A DNA stretch of 63,640 bases, the filler included, from Pachysolen tannophilus NRRL Y-2460 (lineage: Eukaryota): the NCBI GenBank assembly GCA_001661245.1. It is 5 parts of 3 records of this genome, joined end to end, with 100 filler letters (N's around TTAATTAATTAA, not from the genome) between each part and the next. Parts side by side here need not be neighbours in the genome. Positions count along the whole stretch, not along the records: positions 35,191 to 63,640 come from KV454020.1; 4 more parts are not named here. One strand, written 5' to 3'. Positions 32,841-63,469 of the stretch are shown here, in pieces (position 1 is the first letter of the stretch; every line of letters starts with the position of its first letter). The notes under the pieces are model-generated. The model saw nothing but the letters and a program-made list of their open reading frames with translations, made no database searches and was not told the DNA's origin. A program made the position numbers and the translations under genes.

Positions 32841-33878
32841 TTATTTATAACTTTTCTTTGGGAATGGATATGATGGACCAACTTCTTGAATTGATAAAGC
32901 AGCTAACCATTGTCCCATATCAATAGATTGATCCAAATCATTACCTTCTACTAAACCTGCCATAAAACCTGCAGCAAAAGCATCACCAGCTCCATTAGTA
33001 TCGACAATTTTAGAAGTTTCTAATGGGTGAACTGGATATTCTTTTATTTCAAATTCATTTTTCTCTATTTTATAAGTTACAGATAAAGTTGGATCTAAAC
33101 CTTGAGTAAAGATTACAACTCTATCTCTTTTAGTATTTACCTTGGTTAATTTTGCAATTGATTTGGCAATTTCTTTCAAATCTGTAGTATCAAGATCATG
33201 AGATTTTGCATAAGAATCAGCTTCAGATTCATTACAAATAACATAATCTGTGTATGGAATAACTTGATCCAATGGATCTTTAAAAAATTGAGGAATAAAA
33301 GGTGCTGAGAAATTTAACAGGAAAACTTTGTTAGTCTTTGCAGCATGTTCACCCAAGAGCTTAATAGCTTCTGGAGAAACAGTTAAATGAAAACCACCAA
33401 TATAGAAAAATTTTGCTGCTTCAATCAATTTCCAATTTTCAGGTTTTAACAAATGTTCTGGTTTAAATTCATTAGCAGCACCTAAATCTGTAGCTAAAGA
33501 TCTATTATTACCATTGATTAAAGCTGCACATTTACCTGTTGAATGATCAGATTGAACCATATATTCAGTTCTTAAACCAACAGATCTGTTTGCTTCAATT
33601 AATTTTTCAGCATACTTATCATTACCAACAGATCCAAAATATACAACAGAATCTTTTGGTAATAAATATTGTGCTCCTCTTGCAGTATTTTGAGCAGCAC
33701 CACCAGCAACAAGTTTCAAAGATGGGTTTGATAAACATTCATCAAAAATTGGCATCTGATGTGGTTCAACCAAGATGGCATCATTCTCTTTTAAACCATA
33801 TTTATCCAAATATGTCTTGTCAACATTGATTTGCATATCCAATAAAGGATTACCTAAACATACTAAAGGAAATGACAT
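32841..33878 (-). CDS. ADO1: Adenosine kinase (upstream in-frame ATG at 33962 possible)
   Basis: CLGNPLLD, GGAAQNTARGAQY, VDTNGAGDAFAAGF (PfkB family). Confidence 0.95.
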   Translation of the reverse strand: MSFPLVCLGNPLLDMQINVDKTYLDKYGLKENDAILVEPHQMPIFDECLSNPSLKLVAGGAAQNTARGAQYLLPKDSVVYFGSVGNDKYAEKLIEANRSVGLRTEYMVQSDHSTGKCAALINGNNRSLATDLGAANEFKPEHLLKPENWKLIEAAKFFYIGGFHLTVSPEAIKLLGEHAAKTNKVFLLNFSAPFIPQFFKDPLDQVIPYTDYVICNESEADSYAKSHDLDTTDLKEIAKSIAKLTKVNTKRDRVVIFTQGLDPTLSVTYKIEKNEFEIKEYPVHPLETSKIVDTNGAGDAFAAGFMAGLVEGNDLDQSIDMGQWLAALSIQEVGPSYPFPKKSYK

Positions 33879-34210
33879 GGTGCTATATTGTTTACTATAA
33901 AACTTTTTCAATAGATTAAATTTAATTCTTGAAAAACACTCTTTAATTATAAACGAATTCATAATACATTTTCTTTAAATTTTTCAATTTTTCAATTTTT
34001 GAAATTTTTGAAATTTTTTTTTTTTTCTCTTTTTTTTTGTTGAGATTTTATCTAAAATTAAATGAAAGTCTAGCACATGTTAAATACTATGATAACTACA
34101 TAGTTTTGAAAAGAAAAATTTTTGTTCTCGAGTACAAAAAAATGATAATCTATTTACTTATTAATATTAATTCTCTCATCAAGTCAAGTCAATTCAATTC
34201 AAGTCAAGTT

Positions 34211-35041
34211 TCATTCTTCTTTAGCTTTTGAACTGACAACCAATTTCTTTTTAGCGATTTTAATCATTTTACTTAACCAATATACATTTAAAGAATTTAA
34301 CATAATATTTAAAGAAATTGTTGTGAATGGTACAAATTTGTAATCAATTTTATTCCAAGCATTTGAATATTCCATAATTAGTAAAAAAGCAGCGTAAAAC
34401 CCCCATAATATTCTTACCAAGAAAAAAGTTAATATTAATAATAAACCATTAATCAAAGTAAATTTTGTATTTATAGAATTTTCTGGTAATTTTGATATGA
34501 ACCAATTGATATTTACAAAAGGTGTTGAGAGTTCAAATATTAAAAATCCAGGAATCCAAGGTTGACAATAAATAAATGTTGTTATAAAAACGTATAACGA
34601 CAGAAATGCATGTAATAAAAAACCAGGTCCAAAAAGAGAGTAATGACGCAAACAAATAATTAAATCCCAAATAAAATAACCTACTGTACAAGCAGCAACA
34701 AATGAACCATACTGAGTTCTACCAAAAACTGGATTTTCAAACCAATTCGAATGTTTAAACATTGGTAAAATGAATAAAATAGATAAAATACATTGTACCA
34801 TTGATACGGTATGTATATCAAAATTTAATTTCAGCTTTTTACTCAATTTTGTACTATAAAAATCTCCAAATATTGCCCCATTGATCAATGGTGAAATCAT
34901 AGAATATAAAACCTGATAAAGTAAAAATGATATAATCATTTCATGACCGTGTAACAAGAAATCATTTGTTATATGTGATTTAAACGGGTGTAATTTTAAA
35001 AAAATATCACTATCAAATGGTGTAAAAATATCAACTCCCAT
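34211..35041 (-). CDS. TLC (TRAM/LAG1/CLN8) domain membrane protein, Tda4-like
   Basis: NFDIHTVSMVQ, GYFIWD, FELSTPFVNINWF, FFLVRILWG. Confidence 0.85.
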   Translation of the reverse strand: MGVDIFTPFDSDIFLKLHPFKSHITNDFLLHGHEMIISFLLYQVLYSMISPLINGAIFGDFYSTKLSKKLKLNFDIHTVSMVQCILSILFILPMFKHSNWFENPVFGRTQYGSFVAACTVGYFIWDLIICLRHYSLFGPGFLLHAFLSLYVFITTFIYCQPWIPGFLIFELSTPFVNINWFISKLPENSINTKFTLINGLLLILTFFLVRILWGFYAAFLLIMEYSNAWNKIDYKFVPFTTISLNIMLNSLNVYWLSKMIKIAKKKLVVSSKAKEE

Positions 35042-35059
35042 GATTTCACACTTTAAACA

Positions 35060-35090
<31 letters not shown>

Positions 35091-35213
35091 NNNNNNNNNN
35101 NNNNNNNNNNNNNNNNNNNNNNNNNNNNNNNNNNTTAATTAATTAANNNNNNNNNNNNNNNNNNNNNNNNNNNNNNNNNNNNNNNNNNNNTATATATATA
35201 TAGTGAAAAATAA

Positions 35214-35287
35214 GCTTCTATAGCTTAACCTGGTTAGAGCAATAAACTGAAGATTTATTGGTAAAAGTTCAAATCTTTTTAGAAGCA
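35214..35287 (+). tRNA. trnF: mt tRNA-Phe (GAA)
   Basis: GCTTCTA/TAGAAGC acceptor; ATAAA-CT-GAA-GA-TTTAT. Confidence 0.92.
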
Positions 35288-35386
35288 TTATGATAAATAT
35301 AATGAAAATTATATTTATACCAAGATATAAAAGTAATAATTATTGAAAAATCTCGATAATAAATAAGAAATAAAAAATAAAAATAA

Positions 35387-35617
<231 letters not shown>

Positions 35618-35698
35618 TATAAGAACTTAATAAACATAAGAACTTAATAAAATTCAATAAATATCATTAAATTAATATTTAATTAATGATAATAATAA

Positions 35699-35778
35699 AA
35701 GCACTATAAATTTATAGGTAAAATATATATATATATTAATATATATTTAAAATATTGGTTCGAATCCAATAGTGTTTG
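35699..35778 (+). pseudogene. tRNA-like element (pseudo-tRNA) with AT-only anticodon arm
   Basis: AAGCACT/AGTGTTT acceptor, ATTGG-TTCGAAT-CCAAT T arm, GGT D loop; no recognisable anticodon loop. Confidence 0.65.
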
Positions 35779-35814
35779 TTGAGATAAATATAATGAAAGT
35801 TATATTTATACTAT

Positions 35815-35908
35815 ATATAAAAGGAAAATAAAAGAATAATAATAACCAATTAATAAATAAAAATTAATTAAAAATAAAAAATGAAAAATAATGACATGAG
35901 AAACATTA
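35815..35908 (+). repeat. 94-bp direct repeat of the nad6 leader plus first 6 codons (partner 37391-37484)
   Basis: 92/94 identical, no indels. Confidence 0.95.
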
Positions 35909-37048
35909 AAAAAATCATCAAATTATAATACAAATAAAATTGAATATATAAAAAAATTAAGTAAATCATTCAATTATTCAGAAGAAACAATAATAAATTT
36001 AACAAACGCTTTATTACTTTATAATAAGGATTTAGATTATGAAAAAATTAATTATAATAATGATGAATTTAAACAATGATTAGTTGGATTTTTTGATGCA
36101 GAAGGATCATTTAGAATGAATAGAAGAAGTGATACTCGTTATGAATTAAATATAGTATTAAAATTACATAAAGATGATATATTAGTATTAGAAAAAGTTA
36201 AATTATTATTTAATGTCGAAGATTTAAAAATATATCATTCTGCGAGTGAAAATACTGTAAGTCTTTCTATAGGTACTAAAAATGTATTATTAAACAAAGT
36301 AATTCCATTATTTGATAAATATCCTTTATTAACTAAGAAAAATTATGATTATAATTTATGAAAAGAAGCATTATTAATATATAATGATGAAACATTATCT
36401 AGAATAGATGCTGTAAAAAAATTAGATTTAATTAAAGCAAAAATTAATAATTATGACGAAAAAAATTCTGATAAATATCCTACTGCAGAATTTGTTAATA
36501 AATACTTTAATTTATTTTGATTAATTGGTTTTATTGAAGGAGAAGGTTCATTTTCAATTAAATCTACTAAAGATGCATTACATTTTTCTTTAACACAACA
36601 TAAAGCATCTATTATTGTAATGCAAAAAATATTAAATTTCTTGTTAGTATCATCTCCTGATAAAAATTGTCCAATAAAAGATGAAATGAAAAAAATTAGT
36701 AATAAATTATACCCTGATAGAAATAAATTGAGAGTTATAACTACTACTGTTGATTTTCATTATTGAGTATTGATACCATTGTTCTTGAAATATCCTTTCC
36801 AAGCTAGAAAAGGTACTGATTTTTTATTATGATCTATTTTAGTTATTCTTAAAAAACATGGAATATTACCAACAGATCAAGGACAACAATTATTAAATGA
36901 AATTAAAAAAATTCATAATTCTAAACGTTATACTAATAAAAATTTAGTTCCTATATCGGATTTAATTAATACTATTAGTTTAGATCCTGTATTTGATCTA
37001 AATTTATCACATGATACTAATTCAAGAAAAAATAGATATAAAAAATAA
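35891..37048 (+). CDS. Free-standing double-motif LAGLIDADG homing endonuclease (385 aa, code 4)
   Basis: Open with TGA=Trp; motifs WLVGFFDAEGSF (36077) and WLIGFIEGEGSF (36518); no intron core or interrupted host exon seen. Confidence 0.9.
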
Positions 37049-37155
37049 ATATATTATTATATATATATAATGTATTATTTATTATAATAAATTAAAAACT
37101 TAATAATAAAAGAAGTATATATATATATCTAATTAATATATAATTATATATTTAA

Positions 37156-37240
37156 GAGAAGATCTCCAATGTTGGTAGTTGGTATTGAGCTGTAAACTCA
37201 ACGATTTATTTCTTCGTGTGTTCAATTCACACTCTTCTCA
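37156..37240 (+). tRNA. trnY: mt tRNA-Tyr (GTA)
   Basis: TTGAG-CT-GTA-AA-CTCAA; long variable arm. Confidence 0.92.
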
Positions 37241-37250
37241 TAAAACATTG

Positions 37251-37300
37251 ATAATAAATAATAAATAATAAATAATAAATAATAAATAATAAATAATAAA
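37251..37300 (+). repeat. (ATAATAA)n 7-mer tandem repeat
   Basis: ~7 copies between trnY and trnN. Confidence 0.8.
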
Positions 37301-37314
37301 GAATAGATATAATA

Positions 37315-37385
37315 GTTTTAATAGCTTAATGGTAAAGCTATGCACTGTTAATGCATTGATTTGGGTTCAATTCCCAATTAAGACT
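37315..37385 (+). tRNA. trnN: mt tRNA-Asn (GTT)
   Basis: ATGCA-CT-GTT-AA-TGCAT. Confidence 0.92.
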
Positions 37386-37466
37386 TTAAAATATAAAAGG
37401 AAAATAAAAGAATAATAATAATCAATTAATAAATAAAAATTAATTAAAAATAAAAAATGAAAAATA

Positions 37467-37949
37467 ATGACATGAGAAATATTAGATTTATCAGTATTAG
37501 GATTTTATTCATTAATAAGTAGTAATTCATTTGAATCAATAGCGATATTAGTTGCTACAATATTACCAGTAATAACTGAATTATGATTTAATTATTCACA
37601 ATTATTTGCATTATTATATACATTAATATATGTAGGAGCTGTAGTTATATTATTTATATTTATATTATCTGTTATTAATGAGAAAGAAGAATATGAATAT
37701 GAATATAGTGGATTAATTATATTATTATTTATATTATTATTAGATGATATTGATGATAATGATGATAATGATAATGATATTTATAATATTAATATAACAG
37801 ATTGATCAGATTGATTAAGTTATAATAATTTATCTGATTTAAATACATTAGGTAATTTATTATTTACTGAATATGCATTATTATTATTATTTATCTCATT
37901 TATATTATTAATGAGTATAATCGGTTTAATTATAGTAGTTAAAAAATAA
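37467..37949 (+). CDS. nad6: NADH dehydrogenase subunit 6
   Basis: Code 4: ALLYTLIYVGAVVILFIFILS and LGNLLFTEY motifs. Confidence 0.9.
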
Positions 37950-38029
37950 ATTAATTATGAATTATAAAGAAAGAAAAAAAATAGATTAATATATTAAAAT
38001 AAATATATTATAATAATAAAAAATAAATA

Positions 38030-39100
38030 ATGTTAAAAAATATAACAAATTATATAATAGATATAATAGATGGATTACAATATTGAATATTTTTATTAGT
38101 ATTTGTAGTAGCTATATTATTATCAGTAGCTTATTTAACAGTAGCAGAACGTAAAACTATGGGATATATGCAACGTAGAGTAGGGCCAAATGCAGTAGGA
38201 TATTATGGTATATTAATGGCATTTGCTGATGCATTAAAATTATTAGTTAAAGAAATAGTATTAGTACATAATAGTGATATTATGTATGTAATAAGTGGAC
38301 CATTAATTACATTATTTTCAGTATTATTAAGTTTAGCTATAATACCATTTGGACCAGGAATATCAATATTAGATAGTGAATATTCAATAATATATATATT
38401 AGCAACTGGTTCTATAGGTATATTTGGTACTATAATAGTAGGATGAATGTCTAATTCTAAATATACTGTATTAGCTACAATTAGAACTACAGCACAATTA
38501 ATAAGTTATGAATTAGTTTTAACAACTATTATATTTATAATAGTTTTATTAGTAAGTTCATTAAATATAAATACAATAATTGAATCACAATTAAATTGTT
38601 TTTATTTTATTCCTTTATTCCCCTTATTTATTCTATTTTTTATTAGTATTTTAGCTGAAACTGGACGTCCTCCTTTTGATAATATCGAAGCTGAATCTGA
38701 ATTAGTTTCTGGTCATATGACTGAATTATCTGCATCTCCTTTTGTTATCTTTTTTTTAAGTGAATATTGTTCTGTTCTTTTTATGAGTGCTTTAACTGCT
38801 ATATTCTTTTATGGTGGTTATTTACCTTTTATTAATTCTTTACATTTATTTATTCTTAATTTATTTGATCAACATAATATCTTTTTCTTTATTATTGAAG
38901 GATTCTTATTTGGTTCTTATTTAATTATTAAAACTAATTTCTTTATGTTCTCTTTTATTTGAATTAGAGCATCTTTCCCTAGATTAAGATATGATTTACT
39001 TATTAATTTCTGTTGATATGTTTTATTACCTATCGTTTTTGCTATAGTTATACTTATCCCCACTATTTTATATAGTTTTGATGCTATTCCTACTATATAA
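38030..39100 (+). CDS. nad1: NADH dehydrogenase subunit 1
   Basis: [34 protein letters not shown]. Confidence 0.97.
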
Positions 39101-39225
39101 TTTATTATTTCTTCTCTCTCATATTTAATTATATTTAATTTAAATATATATATTTAATATATAAAACTGGTTAATAAAGATTATATTAATATAATATAAT
39201 AAAAATAAAAATATTAGAAAAAATA

Positions 39226-40677
39226 ATGGCAATACAATTATTAATAAATGTTAATATAATAGGAGTTATATTAATAATAATATATAATAGATATAAAATT
39301 TATTGAAAAGATAGTGTTATAGGAATGAAACAAATAGGATTAATAATAAGTATATTAAATATATGAATAATAATTAAATTATTAATAGATTATAATAATA
39401 ATTATTATGGATTTCAAAATATAGTTAATTATTTAAATATTAATTGAGGTATAGATGGTATATCATTAATATTAATTATATTAACAAGTATATTAGGACC
39501 AATAGCATTATTATCAAATTGAAAAAATATACGGAAATATAATAAATCATATATAATAACAATATTATTATTAGTAATATTAATGATATTAAATTTTATA
39601 TGTTTAGATTTAATAAGTTTTTATATATTATTTGAATCAACATTAGCACCATTATTTATATTAATAGGAATATATGGAGCTAATAATAAAGATAAAGCAG
39701 CATATTATGTATTAATATATACATTAGCTAGTTCATTATTTATGTTATTATCAATAGTATTATATAATATAATATTAAATACAACTGATTATACATATAT
39801 AAATAGTATAGTGATATCAACGGAATTACAAAGTATATTATGAATTGGTATATTTATAGGTTTAATGGTTAAAACACCATTAATACCAGTACATACATGA
39901 TTACCAATAGTACATTCAGAATCACCATTAGGTGGTTCTATATTATTAGCAGGTGTAATATTAAAATTAGCTATATATGGAATAATAAGATTATTATTAT
40001 CTAATTTATCAGAAATAACTATATCATATACACCTATAGTTTATATTATAGCTATAATAACATTAATTTATAGTAGTTTAATAACATTAAAACAAACTGA
40101 TTTAAAAGTAATTATAGCATATAGTTCAATAAGTCATTTAGCAATATGTATATTAGGTATATTTGCTAATAATTTAATTGGAATTAATGGTTCTTTAATA
40201 TTATGTATAGCTCATGGTTTTGTATCACCAGCTTTATTTATATTAGTAGGTGGAATATTATATGATAGATTTCATAATAGATTAATTAATTATTATCAAG
40301 GTTTATCTAGTTATATGCCAATATTTAGTATTTATTTAGTTATATTTAGTTTCTGTAATACTGGTACTCCTTTAAGTGGTAATTTTGTAGGTGAATTTTT
40401 ATCAATAACTGGTGCAGTTATAAGACATCCATTAATAGGATCATTTGGTATTGCATCAGTATTATTATCCGCATGTTATCAAATGAAATTAACTAATAAA
40501 TTAACTGGAGGTGTATATTCAACATATTTAAATATAACAAATGATATGACAAATAGAGAATTATTTTTATTAAATTGATTATTATTACCTACTATTTTAA
40601 TAGGTATTTACCCTTCATGTATTATTAATTTATTAAATTGTTCTACATCTTGTTTAATTTACACTCTTTATTATTAA
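39226..40677 (+). CDS. nad4: NADH dehydrogenase subunit 4
   Basis: FESTLAPL, HTWLPIVHSESP, IAYSSISH, AHGFVS. Confidence 0.97.
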
Positions 40678-40729
40678 TTTTATTCTTTTCTCATTTTATT
40701 TGAATTTATAAGCAATATATTTATTTTAT

Positions 40730-40800
40730 GGATTAGTGTTGATGGTTCAACATATTAATTGCAAATTAATTATCTTTGAGTTCAATTCTCATCTAATCTT
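40730..40800 (+). tRNA. trnC: mt tRNA-Cys (GCA)
   Basis: ATTAA-TT-GCA-AA-TTAAT. Confidence 0.88.
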
Positions 40801-40842
40801 ATTAATAAATTAATTCTTTTATTTTTCATTTATTCTTATAAA

Positions 40843-40926
40843 GTCATTATGGTGGAATTGGTAGTCACAATACACTTAAAATGTATTGCTTTAATTAGCG
40901 TATAAGTTCGAATCTTATTAATGACA
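40843..40926 (+). tRNA. trnL: mt tRNA-Leu (TAA)
   Basis: ATACA-CT-TAA-AA-TGTAT; long variable arm. Confidence 0.92.
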
Positions 40927-41007
40927 TTAATATTTAATTATCTTATTTAGAGTTTAATTATCACTTTTTTATTAATTAATTAACATATTAATTATTATTC
41001 TTTTTAT

Positions 41008-42629: not shown

Positions 42630-42638
42630 ATATAAGTA
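42630..42638 (+). promoter_or_regulatory. Yeast mitochondrial nonanucleotide promoter ATATAAGTA
   Basis: Exact match directly before the candidate RNase P RNA. Confidence 0.55.
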
Positions 42639-44116: not shown

Positions 44117-44187
44117 AGTATAATAGTGTAATGGTAACACATTAGACTCATAATCTAAAGATTCATGTTCAAATCATGATTATGCAA
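44117..44187 (+). tRNA. trnM: mt tRNA-Met (CAT), probable initiator
   Basis: TTAGA-CT-CAT-AA-TCTAA; unpaired 1:72 position. Confidence 0.88.
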
Positions 44188-44263
44188 ATAATAATAGTGT
44201 AAAGGTAACATATTAAATCAATTAAAAGATTTAAAGATTCATGTTCGAATCATGATTATAAGA
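44188..44263 (+). pseudogene. Degenerate tandem copy of tRNA-Met (pseudo-tRNA)
   Basis: Shares ATAATAGTGTAA.GGTAACA and AAAGATTCATGTTC.AATCATGATTAT with 44117-44187; anticodon arm replaced by TTAAATC-AATTAAAA-GATTTAA. Confidence 0.8.
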
Positions 44264-44335: not shown

Positions 44336-45083
44336 ATGAGAGATATAATAATATCAACAAACATTAGAAATGATGTGCCAACACCATGAGGTGTATATTT
44401 TCAAGATTCAGCAACACCAAATATGGAGGGTATAATAGAATTACATAATAATGTAATGTTTTACTTAATATTAATATTAATATTTGTATCATATGTATTA
44501 TATTCAATAATAAAAAATGATTCAAATAGTCCAATAACATTAAAATATTTAAATCATGGACAATTAATAGAAATAATATGAACAACATTACCAGCAGTAA
44601 TATTATTAACAGTAGCATTTCCTAGTTTTATTTTATTATATTTATGTGATGAAGTTATTTCACCAGCAATGACAATAAAAAGCAATAGGATTACAATGAT
44701 ATTGAAAATATGAATACTCTGATTTCATTAATGATGATGGAGAAATTATTGAATTTGAATCATATATTATACCAGAAGATTTATTAGAAGATGGTCAATT
44801 ACGTATGTTAGATGTTGATGCTTCAATAGTAGTACCAGTAGATACTCATATTAGATTTATTGTTTCATCAGCTGATGTATTACATGATTTCTGTGTTCCT
44901 TCTTTAGGTATTAAAATTGATGCTGCTCCTGGTAGATTAAATCAAACATCAGCATTAATTCAAAGAGAAGGTGTTTATTATGGTCAATGTAGTGAACTTT
45001 GTGGAGTTTTCCATTCAGCTATGCCTATTAAAGTAGAAGCTGTATCATTATATGAATTTATTAACTGATTAAATGAACAATAA
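44336..45083 (+). CDS. cox2: Cytochrome c oxidase subunit 2 (one extra A in run 44677-44681 shifts frame)
   Basis: [17 protein letters not shown]; removing one A gives TIKAIGLQWYWKYEY; CuA motif [14 protein letters not shown]. Confidence 0.95.
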
Positions 45084-50111: not shown

Positions 50112-50531
50112 ATGTTACAAGATTTATTTAATAATTATATAATATTAGTAGGTATTATAGGTATAGCATTAATAGGTATAAATTATTTAATAGTAGAAAG
50201 TAGTAAATTAGATGAAGATAATGGATTTGATTATAGTGAAAAATTAGGACCATTTGAATGTGGATTTAATAGTTTTGAACAAAGTAATAATCCTATTCCA
50301 GTTGCATTCATTTTAGTTGCATTATTATTTTTACCATTTGATTTAGAAGTATCTTCTTTATTACCTTATATTATGTCAATATATTCTGTAGGTATTTATG
50401 GTTTAATTATTTTCATAATTTTCTTATTAATTTTAATTATTGGTTTTATATATGAATTAAATACTAAATCTTTAGTGTTTAATACTTTAAATAAACCATC
50501 ACATGAAATAAAATTATTTATAAATAATTAA
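50112..50531 (+). CDS. nad3: NADH dehydrogenase subunit 3
   Basis: EKLGPFECGF, FLPFDLE, GFIYE; ATG 1 nt after nad2 stop. Confidence 0.95.
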   Translation: MLQDLFNNYIILVGIIGIALIGINYLIVESSKLDEDNGFDYSEKLGPFECGFNSFEQSNNPIPVAFILVALLFLPFDLEVSSLLPYIMSIYSVGIYGLIIFIIFLLILIIGFIYELNTKSLVFNTLNKPSHEIKLFINN

Positions 50532-50773
50532 TTTATTTATTTTTAAAAGTAGTTTCCAATATAAATATTCTGATAAAATCAGTTATATATAATATATTAT
50601 ATTAATTTATTTATGAATTTTAATTTATAAATATTTATGATATAAATTATATAATCTATAAAAAAAATTAATACTATATTAATAGTATAATTTAAGATAA
50701 GTTAAATATATTATAATATTAAAAAATATATATAATATATAAAACGAAACAATAAAAAATAATTAATTTATTT

Positions 50774-54389
<3,616 letters not shown>

Positions 54390-54569
54390 TTATCTATATT
54401 TTTAATTAAATTAGATAGTATTAAATATATAATAAATATATAATATTTATATAAAATAAAATTAAATAGTAAAACAAATATTAAATATTATCTAATTAAT
54501 ATATATATATAAATATATATTAAATATATATAAAAAATATATCTTAAACATAAATAGAATAGAAATAAG

Positions 54570-54716
54570 ATGCCACAATTAATACCATTTTATTATTTAA
54601 ATCAATTAACATATGGTTTTATAGTATTATTTATAATATTATGATTAGTATCACAAATAATATTACCATATATAATACAATTATATATAATTAGAATGAT
54701 AATAGCTAAATTATAA
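54570..54716 (+). CDS. atp8: ATP synthase subunit 8
   Basis: MPQLIPFYYLNQLTYG, 48 aa. Confidence 0.97.
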
Positions 54717-54744
54717 TAATAAATAGAAAGAAATAAAAAAATAT

Positions 54745-55531
54745 ATGAAATAAAAGAATAGAAAACTCGATTTTCGTATTTTCACCATTAGACCAATTTG
54801 ATATTAAATTATTTATTGGTTTTTCATCACCATTTATAGATTTATCATCATTAAACTATACAACATTTAGTTTATATAGTACAATAGTATTATTAATAAT
54901 AACTTATACATATGATTTATCATTAAATAATAATAAAATAATAGGATCAAAATGATTCTTATCAATAGAAGCAATATTTCATACAATATTAAATATGGTT
55001 AAAAGCCAAATAGGAGGTACAAAATATGGAGTATATGTACCATTAATTTATACATTATTTGTATTTATATTAGTAGCTAATTTAATAGGTATGATTCCTT
55101 ATAGTTTTGCATTATCTTCTCATTTAGTTTTTGTTATTAGTTTATCATTAGCTATTTGATTAGGTGTAACAATATTAGGATTATATAATCATGGTTGAGT
55201 ATTCTTTGGATTATTCGTACCAGGAGGAACACCTTTAGTATTAGTACCAGTATTAGTATTAATAGAATTATTATCATATACAGCAAGAGCAATATCATTA
55301 GGATTACGTTTATCTGCTAATACTTTATCAGGTCATTTATTAATGGTTATTTTAGGAGGATTAATTTATAGTTTAATGAGTATTAATACTATAACATTAT
55401 TCTTAGGTTTAATACCTTTACTTGGAGTATTCGGTATTGTTTGTTTAGAATTTGCCATAGCTTGTATTCAATCTTATGTATTTACTATTTTAACATCATC
55501 ATATATAAAAGATGCAGTATACTTACATTAA
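54745..55531 (+). CDS. atp6: ATP synthase subunit 6 (start uncertain, no in-frame ATG)
   Basis: SPLDQF, NLIGMIPYSFA, GLRLSANTLSGHLL, YIKDAVYLH*. Confidence 0.93.
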
Positions 55532-57366
55532 TTTAATTATATTTTAATATAATATAAATATCAATATAAATATTCTAATAAAATAATCTAATAAAAAAAA
55601 AATAAAGAAAATAAAAGAAAGATAATAGATTTGAAAAAAAAATAAGAAAAGATTAAAGAGACAATTAACTGATTGAAAAATATATTGGGAGATGCAATAT
55701 AGATTACTAATAGAGAAGGTTAAAAAGAGATTAATATCAGCATTAATCATAAAACCTAAGGGAAACCGAAAAGAAAACTGAGTGAACTGAAACATCTAAG
55801 TAACTTAAGGAAAAGAAATCGACAGAGATTCTGTGAGTATTGGTGAGAGAAAGCAGAAAAGTTAGTTAATAAGTATATCGTATAAATGATAGAAAAAGGG
55901 ACAAACTAGTTCTAAAACTAAATACTATTAGTAAATATGAATAAGTACCGAAAGGGAAAATCAATAGATTAGTTGTTTTATAAGCAATTAAAGATAAAAA
56001 AAAATCAATAATGTACCTTTTGTATAATGGGTCAGCAAGTTATTATTATTAGCAAAATAAAGATATTAGAATGAAAATGAGAATAAGTAGTTAATAATAA
56101 TAAACCCGAAAGTAAATGATCTTACCATGAGCAGGTGGTTAATCGAGAAATCGAGATCGACCGAACAGGTTAATGTTGCAATATTATCTGATGACTTGTG
56201 GTATGTGGAGAAAGTCAAATCTGATTTACAAATAGCTGGTTTTTTGCGAAATATATTTAAGTATAGCATTTATAGAATATTTAGTCGGTAAAGCAATTAA
56301 TAATAATTGGGGTTCTGATAAAGAATTATCAATATTATTTAATCTCATAATGATTACAATATAATTATAAATAGTCAGATTATTGGTGATAAGGTCGATA
56401 ATCAAAAGGAAAACAGTCCAGATTAATAGATAAGGTTCCAAAATATATATTAAGTGAAAATAATATTAAATAATTATTAAACAATTAGTAGATAGGTTTG
56501 ATAGTAACTATTCTATAATAATCGTGTAACAACGTACTAATTATTATATAATTTAATTATTTAATAGATAATAATCGGATCTAAAATATATTACCGAATC
56601 TTTAATTATGATTATATATTATTAAATATAATTATAAGGTAGCAAAACATTTAATGATAATATAATATATTATATATATTATAATATTTAAATTATTCTA
56701 ATAAATAATAATTTATATTAGAATTATTAATAAAAAATAATTAAATATATTAATTAAATAGAGAATGCTGACATGAGTAACGTAAAAATGGTAAAATCCA
56801 TTTCACTTTGTATCTGAGGTTTTAATATAAAATCGGTCCATAATTATTTAATTAAAAAGTTAAATGAGATAGGTAATTAATAAATTATATAAATGACTAT
56901 TATTATATTAATAATAATTAATATATCTTTATAATAGTACAGGAAAATAAATAATAAAATACCGTAATTAAACCGACACAGGTAGATTAGTAAGAAATGA
57001 AAGTGAATGAGTTAATTATAGTTAATGAACTCGGCAAATCAAACCTCTGACGTTAGTCAAAAAGAGGCAATAAAGCAAATATTATACGACTGTTTACTAA
57101 AAACACAGCACTTTGCAAAAACGAAAGTTGTTGAATAAAGTGTGAATTCTGCCCTATGTTTAATAATAAAAAAATAAATTATTTGGTTTATTTTCTAAAG
57201 TTAAATAAATGGCGGCTTTATACTGAGAGTCATAATGTAGCGAAATTCATTGGCCACTAATTATGGTCCTGCATGAATGGAGTAACGATATAATAACTGT
57301 ATCAACTATAAGCTCAGTGAAATTGAATTTGCAGTGAAGATGCTGTATACCTAAAGTAAGACGAGA

Positions 57367-58007
57367 GTGCGACTAGATAAGTACTTATTAATAATGTGGT
57401 GAAAATCCACCTAATAATCCATTATTTGAGCTCAATATAGCATGCATTAGAAGTAATTCTTTTGTTTGAAGCCTATATTATTTATATCCTCCCTATTTTT
57501 AATTTTTTATTATTATAGGTAGGTGAGCTAGATTACTATGAATAGGAGATCGAACTCATGTTAGAAGCGTTACTAAAAATTACACAGAGAAAAAATATTG
57601 GTAATAATAATTGTTGATTGTAGAAAAAAGTTCTCGATTTTTTCTTAATGGATCATAATATCAACATACGTATAGTGAGATTCTAAGGTAATCATAAAAG
57701 TATTAATAAGTAAACTAGGTAAACCCAATATTAACCATTTAAATTATAAATTATAAATTATAAATTATAAATAATGGAAGTTAAATTGCAAAATTTAATA
57801 AATAATAGTGGGTAAAGGATGTTCTAAAAAGCTAATGTCTTATATTAATCGTAAGAATAGAATCATTTGATTTAATTTGAAAAAATGCAGACTTAGAACA
57901 GGTGTAAATTAAAATAATGATAATTTATGCTCGAGCCGTATGCGATGAAAGTTGCACGTACGGTTCCACGAGGGGGAAAATTTAGTAATAGATCGACCTA
58001 TCTCAAC
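57367..58007 (+). mobile_element. ORF-less group II intron in rnl at the E. coli 2059-equivalent site (641 nt)
   Basis: GACGAGA|GTGCGAC ... domain V GAGCCGTATGCGATGAAAGTTGCACGTACGGTTC ... CAAC|AGACCCTATG. Confidence 0.93.
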
Positions 58008-58711
58008 AGACCCTATGCAGCTTTACTATAATTAAATAGGTTGTATTTATTTTGAATATTTTTAGCATATAAAGTAATAGATTATATAACCATGAAATAC
58101 TTTTATTATTTAAAATAAATACTCCAATATTAGGGTTTTTTATATTATTTATAATATTATAAAAAAATAATCATAAAATTTAATTATGAAATTATCTAAT
58201 TAAATATAGAAATAATTTCTATTTTGATGACAGCCTTTAATTGATAGTTTGAATGGGGTGTTGATTTCACATAAAATAACTGAATATGTCCAATTACATA
58301 TTATATTATTATTAAATAATTTAAAATTAATGAATTAATCATTAAAATTGTTAAAAAAGAGAATTATTTTTCTTTATTTTAGAATAAATTATGTACAGTA
58401 CATTTGATCTGAAATCAAATTATAACAATATTGTTATATATTTATTAGTATAATAGTGGATAACTGTGCTATAATTTGACACTTACAAGTGGAAATGATA
58501 CGTAAGTATGGTATAATGAACAGATTATTTCGATAGTAAGAGTAATCGATAACGAATAAAAGTTACGCTAGGGATAACAGGGTAATAACATGAGAGAGTA
58601 GATATTGTCAATGTTGTTTGCCACCTCGATGTCGACTCAACCTATCCTATTGGTTGTATCCGCTAATAAGGGTTTGACTGTTCGTCAATTAAAAGGTTAC
58701 GTGAGTTGGGT

Positions 58712-60028
58712 ATGTATTTGCCCGGTAATTCTGCAAAGAATTATAATAATTACTGGCTGAAAACGGTGAAGATTAAAATATATTTTTAATATATCATATT
58801 AATACCGTGGGAAATTATATATATATTATATAATCCTGTAACGACTCAATATATAATTTATATATTGGACTTATTATAATAATAATAATAGGTAAAACGC
58901 CAGCATTATTAATAAATTATTAAATAAATTAAATTAAATAAATATAATAAATAAATGTATGAAATAAATAATCACATTATTATATGATAAAATTAGAAAA
59001 TAAATTAACTGATCAATATATATGTGGTTTAGTACAAGCTAATGGTTCTTTTTCAATATCATTAATTAAAACGAAAAATAATTTAAGATTACAACCAATA
59101 TTTAAAATAACTCAACATATTAATAATAAAGATTTAATATTAGCTATTAAATCTAAATTTAATAATATAGGTTATTGACGTATTATTAATAAAAATAATA
59201 TAATATATGAAATTAATAATTTAGAAGAATTAAAAGATATTATAATTCCATTTTTTATTAAGAATGATTTAAAAAGTAATAAACAAATAGATTTATTTAA
59301 ATTTAAATTTATTATTGAATTATTATATTTAAATATTGGAAATATTAATAAAAATTTATTAATAAGTTTAATTAGTATAGCAAATACTATTAATAGAGAT
59401 AAAGATTTAAAAGATATTAGATATTTATCATCTAATGAAATAGATATTGTGAAAAATGAAGAAGTATTAATAAATATTAGTGATTTAACTAATATAATTA
59501 ATAATTATAAATCAAGTAAATTAAATAATGAATATATTTGAGGTTTATTTGATGGTAATGGATCATTAATTTGTAATATAACTACAAAAAAAGATATAAA
59601 TTTTGTATTATCAATAACTCAAAATATTAATGATATAAATTTAATTAAAAAAATTAAAGAATATTTTAATGATATAGGACAAATAAATTATAGTATATCA
59701 AATAATAAAGATATTAAATGATCTGTTAATAATAATAAAGAAATTAAAGAAATATTATTGTTATTAAAGAATAATAATAATAAATTACCTATAATAAAAA
59801 ATAATAAAGTGTATTATACTTTATTAATAATAAATGAAATAAATAAAGAGAATTATGATAAAAATAATGATGAACAATTATTTAAAATAATAAAATTATC
59901 ATATAATTTAATAAATAATAGAAATAATATGAGAGAAATAGAATACATAAATAAAATCAAGGATAAATTTAATAAAAATTAATAATGAAGATATAGTCTA
60001 AACAATTATGAAAATAATTGATAATTTG
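58712..60028 (+). mobile_element. Group I intron in rnl (E. coli ~2584/2585 site) with LAGLIDADG ORF
   Basis: GAGTTGGGT| ... G|TTAATACGTCGTGAGACAG; core elements GGCTGAAAACGGTGAA, AATACCGTG, GTAACGACT, AAGATATAGTCT. Confidence 0.9.
58984..59982 (+). CDS. Intron-encoded double-motif LAGLIDADG protein (332 aa) with Asn at both catalytic positions
   Basis: Open in code 4; YICGLVQANGSF and YIWGLFDGNGSL. Confidence 0.88.
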
Positions 60029-60379
60029 TTAATACGTCGTGAGACAGTATGGTTTCTATCTGCTTTAGGAAATTGTCAAATAAGAATTATAACTTAGTAC
60101 GAAAGGATTAGTTATAATTAATCAATGGTTTAACTATTGCATTATTTTAGTTAGATTAATAATCTAATTAAATATAAAGATTTAATTTAATGCATAGTAG
60201 TAAAGCTACATTAATAATAAATAAGTATTGAACGCATATCAAATACGAAATTGATCTTATTAGACATTTTAATTATTATGTTATACTAACATATAGATAG
60301 GTTAATGATAGTTTATCTATTTAATACTAATTAATAATTTTCTTTTCTTTATATCTAATTTATTATCTTTAATTTTTTT

Positions 60380-60453
60380 GTTATAATTGCATAATTGGTT
60401 ATTGCGTTTGTTTTGTAATCAAAAGATTTTAGGTTCGAGTCCTAATTATAACT
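60380..60453 (+). tRNA. trnT: mt tRNA-Thr (TGT)
   Basis: GTTATAA/TTATAAC acceptor; loop TT-TGT-AA. Confidence 0.9.
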
Positions 60454-61176: not shown

Positions 61177-61249
61177 ATGACTATGGCGAAACGGTAGACG
61201 CGATTAATTAAGGATTAATTTTTTATAGGTTCAAATCCTATTAGTCATA
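61177..61249 (+). tRNA. trnL: mt tRNA-Leu (AAG), short variable loop
   Basis: Leu-type D arm TGGCGAAACGGTAGACGC; ATTAA-TT-AAG-GA-TTAAT. Confidence 0.82.
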
Positions 61250-61290: not shown

Positions 61291-61539
61291 ATGGAATTAA
61301 TATTATTAGTTTTAGTTGCAGTTGGTTTAAATATAATTGATATATTTATTATGATAGAAATATTAATTATAGGTTGTACTGTTAACACAATATATATAAG
61401 TAGTTTAGATAATGATATGATAGGATTAATATTTAGTTTAATTCAAATTATTATATCAGGTATTGAATCTGCTATAGGTTTATCTATATTAGTTAGTTAT
61501 AATAGAATAAGAGGTGATAATACAGATATTAAAATATAA
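61291..61539 (+). CDS. nad4L: NADH dehydrogenase subunit 4L
   Basis: GIESAIGLSILVSYNRIRG; TAATG stop/start overlap with nad5. Confidence 0.95.
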   Translation: MELILLVLVAVGLNIIDIFIMIEILIIGCTVNTIYISSLDNDMIGLIFSLIQIIISGIESAIGLSILVSYNRIRGDNTDIKI

Positions 61540-63469
61540 TGATATATTTAAGTATATTTTCATCCTTAATTGGTAGTTTAATTAGTGGTTTATTAGGTAG
61601 ATATTTAGGACCTAATAGTTCTAAATGAATAGTTTGTTTTACATTATTTATTTCATTAATAAGTATATATATATTATATATAGATATAATATATAATAAT
61701 ATAGAATATTCAATATATTTAATGAATTGAATAGTTGTAGATAATATTGAAATAAATTGATCATTAACTTTAGATAAATTATCAATTTCAATGTTAATAC
61801 CAATAATAACTGTATCATTTTTAGTTCATATATATTCATGTTCATATATGAGTCATGATCCACATCAACAAAGATTTTTTAGTTATTTATCAATGTTTAC
61901 TTTTGCAATGATAATATTAGTAACAGGTAGTAATTATTTAATTTTATTTGTTGGTTGAGAATTTATAGGTATAGCTTCTTATTTATTAATATCATTTTGA
62001 TATACTAGAATTAATGCATCTAAAGCAGGTTTAAGTGCTTTATTAGTTAATAGATTTGGTGATGCTTTTTTAGTTTTAGGTTTAAGTTTCTTATTAATGA
62101 CTACAGGTAGTTTAGATTATAATACTATTTTCGCATTAGGTAATTTTATTAATACTGATTTATTAATTATTATTTTATTATGTTTCTTAATCGCAGCTAC
62201 AGCTAAGAGTGCTCAATTAGGATTGCACTCTTGATTATTACTCTGGCTATGGAAGGACCGACACCAGTATCTTCATTATTACATGCTGCTTGTTTAGTTA
62301 TAGCAGGTGTTTTTTTATTAATAAAATCATCACCTATATTAGAATATAGTCCTATGATTTTATTATTAATTTTATGATTAGGTGGTTTATCTACATTAAT
62401 ATCAGGATTAATCGCTGTAGTATCAAATGATATTAAAAGAATAATAGCATTATCAACTATGAGTCAAGTAGGATTTATGATGATTGCTATAGGAGTATCT
62501 GCATATAATTTAGCATTATTTCATTTAATATGTCATAGTTTTTTTAAAGCATTATTATTTATGTCAGCTGGTTCAGTTATACATAGTATAGCTTCAGAAT
62601 ATCAAGATTTACGTGTATTTGGTTCATTTAAACAATATTTACCTTTAACTTATACTTGTATGTTAATAGCTTCATTATCATTAATGGCTATTCCTAGTTT
62701 AACAGGTTATTATTCTAAAGATATAATAATTGAATCAATGTATGGTAATTATGAATTTAGTGGATATATTGTTTATTTATTCGCTTTAAGTTCTGCTACA
62801 TTAACATCGTTATATTCATTAAGATTAATTTATTATACATTTATACATACTCCTAATAATTCTAAATATATTTATTATTATTTATTTGAAAATGATATTA
62901 TTTTAATTATTCCTATGATAATATTAACAATATTATCAATATTTATAGGTTATATTTTAAGAGATGTTTATTTAGGAATGGGTTCTTCATTTTATAATTT
63001 ATTTATTCATCCTAATAATTTAAATTTAATTGATACTGAATTTAGTTTAAATTCAATATTAAAAATATTACCTTTAATTACTAGTATTGGTGGAGGTTTA
63101 ATTATGTTATATATATATGAATTTAATTATAAATTATTTTATGTATTTAATAATAAATTATTAAGATCATTATATATCTTTTTTAATCAAAAAATTATGT
63201 ATGATCAAATATTTAATAATATTATATTGAGATTTAGTTTATATATAAGTTGATTATTAAATAAATATATTGATAAAGGTTTATTAACTTTCTTAGGTCC
63301 TTTAGGATTATCTCAATTTATTAAATTCTTTAATTTAAAATTGAATAAATTAGTTTATCTTAATTTTGGTTTAATTATCGAATTAATTATTTTAAGTTGA
63401 TTCTTAATTATTATTAATGCTAATTATTTATCATATATTTGTATCGGTATTATTTTATTTATTATTTAA
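61539..63469 (+). CDS. nad5: NADH dehydrogenase subunit 5 (2 surplus nt near 62238-62245 shift frame)
   Basis: [23 protein letters not shown] in one frame; [15 protein letters not shown] and HSFFKALLF in another. Confidence 0.95.

Follow-up and report, generated by a model that had tools for sequence, protein, structure and literature searches.

Between atp9 and trnY, the mitochondrial genome of the yeast Pachysolen tannophilus NRRL Y-2460 carries an open reading frame (ORF) of 385 codons that predicts a LAGLIDADG endonuclease and begins with a copy of the leader and first codons of nad6. The gene, here designated ORF385, was found in a stretch of 63,640 nucleotides (nt) from genome assembly GCA_001661245.1, referred to below as the window, in which positions 35191-63640 are AT-rich mitochondrial DNA (mtDNA) using TGA for tryptophan and represent the complete mitochondrial record of 28,450 nt. 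All coordinates are those of the window, and all features of the locus are on the + strand.

The order of genes in the window is trnI (at the other end of the record), trnF, atp9, a tRNA-like element, ORF385, trnY, trnN, nad6 and nad1. ORF385 (35891-37048, read with code 4) stands free in the spacer between atp9 and trnY and interrupts no host gene. Two tRNA genes detected by ARAGORN and present in the published annotation, trnY(gta) at 37156-37240 and trnN(gtt) at 37314-37386, follow it as single copies, trnN being recovered also by Rfam. Both trnY and nad6 are intact, and nad6 (37467-37949) has 160 codons, matches Pfam PF00499 with an E-value of 5.8e-16 and is 76% identical to nad6 of K. phaffii.

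ORF385, trnY and trnN lie between two direct copies of a 94-nt segment that were identified by repeat search and alignment. The downstream copy (37391-37484) is the original 76-nt leader of nad6 together with codons 1 to 6 (MTWEIL), and the derived upstream copy (35815-35908) comprises the same leader and six codons (MTWETL) in frame with ORF385. The copies are identical at 92 of 94 positions, with mismatches at 35846 (C/T) and 35904 (C/T), and their starts are 1576 nt apart. The left edge of the repeat is sharp, and weaker similarity continues to 35917 and 37493. The longest exact run is 57 nt. When the 28,450-nt mitochondrial part was shuffled 50 times with dinucleotides preserved, this value averaged 18.3 and never exceeded 21. 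Of the 17 direct-repeat families reported, no other is both long and highly identical. The original prediction, made from the sequence alone, had described a 385-codon frame starting MTWETL with FDAEG and IEGEG motifs, a duplicated leader with six codons at this identity and spacing, and repeats that bracket ORF385 and both tRNA genes. The frame and its motifs were all reproduced, as were the duplication, by alignment, and the bracketing, from the tRNA and repeat coordinates.

The ORF itself has been annotated before. Table S7 of Christinaki et al. 2022 (PMC9154068) lists the features of P. tannophilus NRRL Y-2460 at a constant offset of 35,190 from the window (trnF 24-97, atp9 197-427, trnY 1966-2050, trnN 2125-2195, nad6 2277-2759), and Table S1 gives a mitochondrial genome size of 28,450. 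The entry orf394 (674-1858), described as 'hypothetical protein, LAGLIDADG', corresponds to ORF385 with a TTA start at 35864. The string orf394 has no occurrence in the main text of that paper, where the duplication is also unmentioned, and the literature searched on the topic gave no account of a leader that the ORF has in common with nad6.

The endonuclease gene ORF385

Pfam LAGLIDADG_1 (PF00961) matches two stretches of the single ORF385 polypeptide, with an E-value of 2e-30. The motifs LVGFFDAEG (E71) and LIGFIEGEG (E218) each place an acidic residue at the end of a LAGLIDADG helix, and align with the GEG/AEG motifs of I-PnoMI and aHE15 in a search of PDB sequences. In the same database, phmmer matched both halves of the protein to I-PnoMI (4.5e-23) and to I-SmaMI, I-PanMI and I-OnuI (1e-21 to 1e-19). 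An AlphaFold model built from a 31-sequence alignment has a predicted local distance difference test score (pLDDT) of 90.7 and a predicted template modelling score (pTM) of 0.89. The top Foldseek matches of this model are I-PanMI, I-OnuI and I-SmaMI (E-values down to 7.8e-15, probability 1.00), with template modelling (TM) scores of 0.70-0.79 on the target and 23-29% identity, and the paired alpha-beta-beta-alpha-beta-beta-alpha fold that makes up the DNA-binding saddle is present in the predicted structure. By sequence and predicted fold, ORF385 is a complete monomeric two-domain LAGLIDADG enzyme of the I-OnuI/I-SmaMI type, and would be expected to be an active nuclease. The Pfam and PDB matches and the predicted fold agree with the earlier proposal of a free-standing, full-length gene that keeps the acidic residues of both motifs.

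All six tryptophan codons of ORF385 are TGA. According to the main text of PMC9154068, P. tannophilus uses mitochondrial code 3 and the rest of the clade code 4. The 4 CTN and 15 ATA codons of ORF385 all fall outside the LAGLIDADG motifs, and the motif codons read the same under either code. A tRNA at 61177-61249 was called as Leu with anticodon AAG. The guanine plus cytosine (GC) content at third codon positions is 0.060 in ORF385 and 0.064 in the core genes, which argues against recent arrival from a genome of different composition.

Relatives of ORF385 number 76 at E<=0.001 among 3972 candidate proteins. The seven closest share 36-54% identity with it, are 288-401 amino acids (aa) long and contain only LAGLIDADG domains. 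A search among longer proteins for a close fused form returned 8 matches from 5184 candidates, all at <=32% identity, indicating that no close fused form of ORF385 is on record. Only distant ORF385-like loci were detected in metagenome contigs (3, at 25-33% identity) and viral contigs (7, at 27-32% identity), and none in contigs of prokaryote genomes.

As first proposed, ORF385 most probably lies outside any intron, given that atp9 is closed by a stop codon of its own, that trnY is intact and that the flanks are small. These flanks are 112 nt (GC 9.8%) and 107 nt (GC 4.7%) long, and the 5′ flank includes 94 + 29 nt copied from other leaders; for comparison, the non-ORF tail of the cox1 intron is 363 nt with a GC content of 22%. 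Flanks that are short, AT-rich and partly copied would leave no room for a ribozyme core. The feature table in PMC9154068 has no intron at this locus. Rfam gave no group I or other intron match in 33000-41000 at E<=1, a negative that counts for little because Rfam also misses the cox1 intron published as group IB. Over 50500-60400, Rfam reported only group II domain V, at 52276-52380 (cox1 intron 1) and 57931-58007 (inside rnl), and its group I models matched neither the cox1 intron called group IB (52426-53758) nor the surroundings of the rnl LAGLIDADG ORF (58984-59982).

Source of the leader copy and surroundings of ORF385

The N-terminus shared by the two proteins belongs to the nad6 family. 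Relatives of nad6 align from their start in 14 of 14 cases; D7 is the same in all of them and L6 in nearly all. The three closest have the N-termini MNLEILDL (K. phaffii), MNLELLDL and MIWELMDL, a pattern of M-x-[L/W]-E-[I/L]-[L/M]-D-L. The seven closest relatives of ORF385 begin MKKSYI, MRWFSG, MKIFTI, MLCKQN, MLKDKH and MKLQNS, one being truncated, and in BLASTP close endonuclease relatives align to ORF385 from residue 9 onward. As the nad6 N-terminus is orthologous and the endonuclease N-termini differ, MTWEIL is native to nad6 and, on these alignments, the leader segment of ORF385 is copied from nad6. Alignment of the relatives from residue 9 suggests that approximately six initial codons of an already free-standing gene were replaced by the graft. 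An ancestral endonuclease starting MKKS, matching the KKSS found after the graft, was also considered; BLASTP aligns from residue 9 only, and this stays a hint.

Codon 5 of the ORF385 copy is ACA (Thr), where nad6 and its relatives have Ile, Leu or Met, and this fits relaxed constraint on the graft. Residues 1-11 form the only long N-terminal stretch of low confidence in the structural model, the first ten-residue block having a pLDDT of 47. The model shows the grafted residues as disordered, and they would thus not be structural.

The contribution of the copy to initiation is more direct. The only in-frame ATG of ORF385 before codon 76 is inside the copy, and codon 76 is located behind the first LAGLIDADG helix. 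The published alternative start, TTA at 35864, is also within the copy, so that initiation of a complete enzyme at either this codon or ATG 35891 would depend on sequence derived from nad6. With nad6 as the source and the sole ATG for the whole enzyme in the copy, capture of the nad6 start signals by ORF385, as the original prediction suggested, is the best reading of the locus.

Published gene orders indicate which neighbours were there before. In Table S3 of PMC9154068, with tRNA genes given by amino acid letter, K. pastoris CBS 7435 has nad4L-nad5-G-I-F-atp9-L-Y-N-nad6-nad1, and the mitochondrial tree strings in that source make K. pastoris the sister of P. tannophilus. Three strains of Pichia kudriavzevii have I-F-atp9-L-N-S-Y-nad6-nad1, P. 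kluyveri has I-F-atp9-I-L-N-S-Y-nad6 and B. custersianus has I-F-atp9-N-S-Y-nad6. In total, N and Y are located between atp9 and nad6 in 6 of the 11 Pichiaceae rows of Table S3. The orders in the other CUG-Ala yeasts differ, with atp9-L(-C)-nad6 in P. toletana and atp9-V-nad6, with Y-N elsewhere, in N. holstii, showing that the interval does turn over. The K. pastoris order L-Y-N-nad6 and the Pichiaceae rows identify trnY and trnN as old residents and the nad6-proximal leader copy as the original, and ORF385 is, judged from gene order, the newcomer between the tRNA-like element and trnY.

The suggestion that ORF385, trnY and trnN form a mobile cassette is therefore not upheld, as K. pastoris and 5 other Pichiaceae rows have both tRNAs in this interval. 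Nor would excision by recombination between the repeats be harmless, since it would remove trnY and trnN, each the single copy in the 28,450-nt genome; the simple excision product should be unable to serve a respiring cell on its own.

Further copied material is found upstream of ORF385. The conserved block F-atp9-...-nad6 starts with trnF(gaa) at 35214-35287 (ARAGORN, Rfam tRNA score 69.7 bits, and the published table), and a 29-nt element at 35292-35320 separates it from atp9 (35387-35617), which is complete with its own stop codon at 35615-35617. A second 29-nt element at 35783-35811, directly before the nad6-leader copy, is identical to the first at 28 of 29 positions, the atp9-upstream element being its source or sister. 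These are the only 2 matches of the 29-mer in the window, with 0 expected from 100 shuffles. The second element is preceded by a degenerate tRNA-like element of 80 nt (35699-35778), which was detected by ARAGORN only at a lowered threshold and has an intact acceptor stem and T-arm, an AT run in place of the anticodon arm and no sensible anticodon. Units therefore follow one another in the orders trnF/29-mer/atp9 leader, tRNA-like element/29-mer/nad6-leader copy/ORF385, and trnN/nad6 leader/nad6. The region upstream of ORF385 is thus a patchwork of the upstream regions of both neighbours, pointing to local copying and, we infer, to 5′-end formation of the tRNA type.

The tRNA-like element is absent from the published feature table and occupies the trnL slot of K. 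pastoris, Pichia and P. toletana. Its identification as a decayed trnL was not adopted, as the best sequence match is trnR(acg), both trnL genes score low and position alone favours trnL. Its retention may reflect a role as an RNA-processing signal. Elsewhere, the 3′ half of the second trnM copy (44153-44183) is repeated 76 nt downstream at 44229-44259 (31 nt, 94% identical), approximately 77 nt before the start of cox2, placing another tRNA fragment ahead of a protein gene.

Short motifs in the spacers were also compared. Each 29-mer copy is followed within 2-4 nt by ATATAAAAG, which opens the leader repeat and also stands before atp9. It occurs 9 times against 5.4 expected, a count reached in 8 of 100 shuffles. 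The promoter-like TATAAGTA, which we take to resemble the core of the S. cerevisiae mitochondrial promoter, is present at 42631, 43997 and 45109 in the rps3-trnP, cox3-trnG and cox2-trnS spacers, upstream of tRNA clusters, and neither in the leader copy nor near ORF385 or nad6. The leader copy was accordingly rejected as a promoter copy, ATATAAAAG not being clearly enriched and TATAAGTA being confined to other spacers; absence of TATAAGTA from the leader makes the copy more likely a 5′ untranslated region (UTR) than a promoter. A third motif, AACTTAATAA, is found twice in a 17-nt tandem directly after the atp9 stop (35624-35650) and once 49 nt past the ORF385 stop (37097-37106). It was rejected as a common 3′ signal because its 4 occurrences against 1.64 expected are not significant, 8 of 100 shuffles also reaching 4. 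Most of the trnY-trnN spacer (37240-37302) is filled by a tandem of (AATAAAT)n.

Proposed origin of the arrangement

We consider it probable, with moderate confidence, that ORF385 was already a resident free-standing gene when it took the 5′-end of nad6 by local non-allelic copying. It would have stood in an old block, trnF-atp9-(trnL)-trnY-trnN-nad6, in the spacer between a decayed tRNA gene and trnY. Its own 5′-end would then have been replaced by the 76-nt nad6 leader, the ATG and five more codons from 1.5 kb downstream, likely through ectopic gene conversion or template switching. Translation in yeast mitochondria, as known from S. cerevisiae, relies on gene-specific factors whose target is the 5′ UTR. 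With the graft, the nuclease mRNA would acquire the nad6 5′ UTR and start codon and would probably be translated alongside nad6. With the 29-nt atp9-spacer patch and the tRNA-like element upstream, the 5′-end of this message may arise, like those of atp9 and nad6, when a polycistronic transcript undergoes processing of the tRNA type.

Several points weigh against this account. Use of the nad6 leader and its translation factors by ORF385 is extrapolated from S. cerevisiae, and we know of no gene-specific translational activator for nad6. Recent copying is plausible, given 2 differences in 94 nt, and ongoing gene conversion between the copies would fit equally well. The fold of the tRNA-like element is only weakly better than that of shuffled sequences (z -1.67), and no clear parent for it was identified among the tRNAs of the window. 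The synteny argument uses published gene-order rows, and Table S3 (PMC9154068) omits ORFs and is incomplete for tRNAs, its row for P. tannophilus itself reading 'P atp9 N nad6'.

An extended form of local capture would make the arrangement a retention device, in which translation from the nad6 leader, driven by the nuclear activator of nad6, could not be silenced by the host without losing a complex I subunit, loss by recombination between the 94-nt repeats would be blocked by the single trnY and trnN, and the decayed tRNA would be kept solely as a processing signal. We regard this extension as distinctly unlikely. ORF385 may instead be an inert relic, old, fixed and immobile, either domesticated or not yet decayed, with the identity of the leaders maintained by gene conversion and having no role in expression. 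This is unlikely, though it deserves serious consideration, because the composition of ORF385 is fully host-like and homing endonuclease genes commonly persist after fixation. Moreover, a sequencing run from a different study contained 0.84 of the sampled words of 35195-38100, where the ceiling would be approximately 0.60 for an ORF-less allele and approximately 0.46 for an allele without the 1,576-nt unit. The fraction is too high for an ORF-less allele, and most of the unit is thus present in that run too. However, with stop codons at a frequency of 0.087 per codon in this DNA, a random frame of 385 codons would be open with P ∼6e-16, and an unselected frame of this length is very unlikely. 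Retention of both motif glutamates, and an in-frame junction located exactly at the start of the N-terminal region conserved in the family, also argue against an inert gene.

Insertion from outside would account for the repeats differently. In this reading, the cassette of the original prediction, a mobile ORF may have entered nad6 after codon 6, taken over the native leader and start of nad6, and carried at its 3′ side trnY, trnN and a replacement leader with six codons that preserved nad6 function. In its favour, what lies between the direct repeats is exactly ORF385, trnY and trnN, the upstream copy directly follows the tRNA-like element where relatives have atp9-trnL, Y and N are together elsewhere in the N. 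holstii genome, and tail-end versions of the mechanism are known. Yet the order L-Y-N-nad6 in the sister K. pastoris, together with the five further Pichiaceae rows, indicates that the tRNAs are not cargo. The copies are 98% identical rather than one native and one diverged foreign copy, and the adjoining 29-nt atp9-spacer patch points to a local patchwork, making an insertion at the head of nad6 decidedly improbable. Hardly credible is an upstream leader copy produced by a read mis-join. Single-base frame breaks in cox2 (at an A run) and nad5 would point to imperfect base accuracy, but the leader copies are told apart by 2 positions and by their flanks on either side, the junction gives an intact in-frame ORF, the other study's run contains most of the sampled words, and the coordinates are the same in the independent re-annotation (Table S7, PMC9154068).

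In cox2 (44336-45083), a single-base shift near 44680, at a run of five A, breaks the frame; in nad5 (61539-63469), the frame is broken by one near 62245 that is not at a homopolymer. The corresponding coding sequences in Table S7 (PMC9154068) are 748 and 1931 nt long and not multiples of 3. These breaks are either sequencing errors or programmed frameshifts. The window itself is composite. Positions 35092-35190 consist of two N runs around TTAATTAATTAA and look like a contig-joining spacer, and the join is one of records by a spacer, not a nuclear insertion of mtDNA. The nuclear part (1-35091) includes genes that predict Med17 (Mediator), a PfkB kinase, a TLC-domain protein and a solute symporter (SSF transporter), according to Pfam. 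Within it, 1000-8000 has a GC content of 0.40-0.47 against approximately 0.30 elsewhere in the nuclear part, with many short overlapping ORFs on both strands, and may be ribosomal DNA or a repeat.

Relation to known systems

Like the I-OnuI/I-SmaMI/I-PanMI/I-PnoMI group (PF00961), ORF385 has two LAGLIDADG_1 domains in one chain and a glutamate closing each motif. Most genes for enzymes of this group lie within group I introns or in rps3, whereas ORF385 stands alone in a spacer and takes its first six residues from nad6. It also differs from them in an N-terminal extension of approximately 60 residues with two predicted helices (14-44), which is common only to its 7 close relatives.

Mobile ORFs (mORFs) with duplicated host-gene ends are known from atp6 of Allomyces macrogynus and from Glomeromycota, where they lie inside the host gene, involve its 3′-end and leave a native and a diverged foreign copy; endonuclease ORFs with such duplicated 3′-ends, of atp6 and of other genes, are textbook cases. 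In both these elements and ORF385, an endonuclease ORF is joined in frame with a host-gene segment, and a second copy of this segment keeps the host gene whole. In ORF385, however, the segment is a 5′-end that contributes only 6 codons, and a distance of 1.5 kb separates two copies that are 98% identical. The copies of an mORF flank the element only, whereas the resident trnY and trnN also lie between those at ORF385, and with 92 of 94 positions identical neither copy has the divergence of a foreign one. Synteny indicates a local copy rather than insertion into nad6.

Two free-standing LAGLIDADG genes of yeast mtDNA, ORF1 (F-SceIII) and ENS2 (F-SceI) of Saccharomyces, are likewise linked to a respiratory gene next to them. 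According to bioRxiv 10.1101/028324, ORF1 begins with 19 nt that are also the last 19 nt of COX2. There the link is an overlap, in which the 3′-end of the gene upstream takes part and nothing is duplicated, while ORF385 has a duplicated 5′-end of the downstream gene and two tRNAs between the copies. No named Saccharomyces protein is among the 76 relatives of ORF385.

Duplicated gene starts have also been described in filamentous fungi. In Phialocephala subalpina, the 124 bp upstream and first 14 bp of a duplicated atp9 feed an inserted ORF, ORF_01 (PMC3434094). Here too the leader and start of a core mitochondrial gene are duplicated on an unrelated ORF. As described in that source, ORF_01 differs from ORF385 in that it predicts only 123 aa, is not reported as an endonuclease and accompanies duplication of the whole of atp9, and it is missing or broken in most of 8 species. 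In Stemphylium, a 630-nt duplicate of the start of nad2 has been described (PMC5626475).

How free-standing endonuclease genes are expressed in mitochondria, where each mRNA needs leader-specific translation factors, is rarely addressed. The ORF385 locus offers a clean natural example, in which the sole usable start is in the grafted leader of a neighbour and the source copy is 1.5 kb away. It could be used to ask if the nad6 leader alone drives translation of a foreign ORF in a yeast that contains complex I. The weight of the case is limited, as the ORF was already annotated, related duplications are in print, and we infer rather than observe the activity and expression of ORF385. Compared with the systems above, the locus is new in that a complete LAGLIDADG gene of a complex I-containing yeast has received a 5′ UTR and six codons from a source 1.5 kb downstream, with two resident tRNA genes in between. 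Descriptions of the phenomenon have mainly concerned the tails of genes, and this case is at the head.

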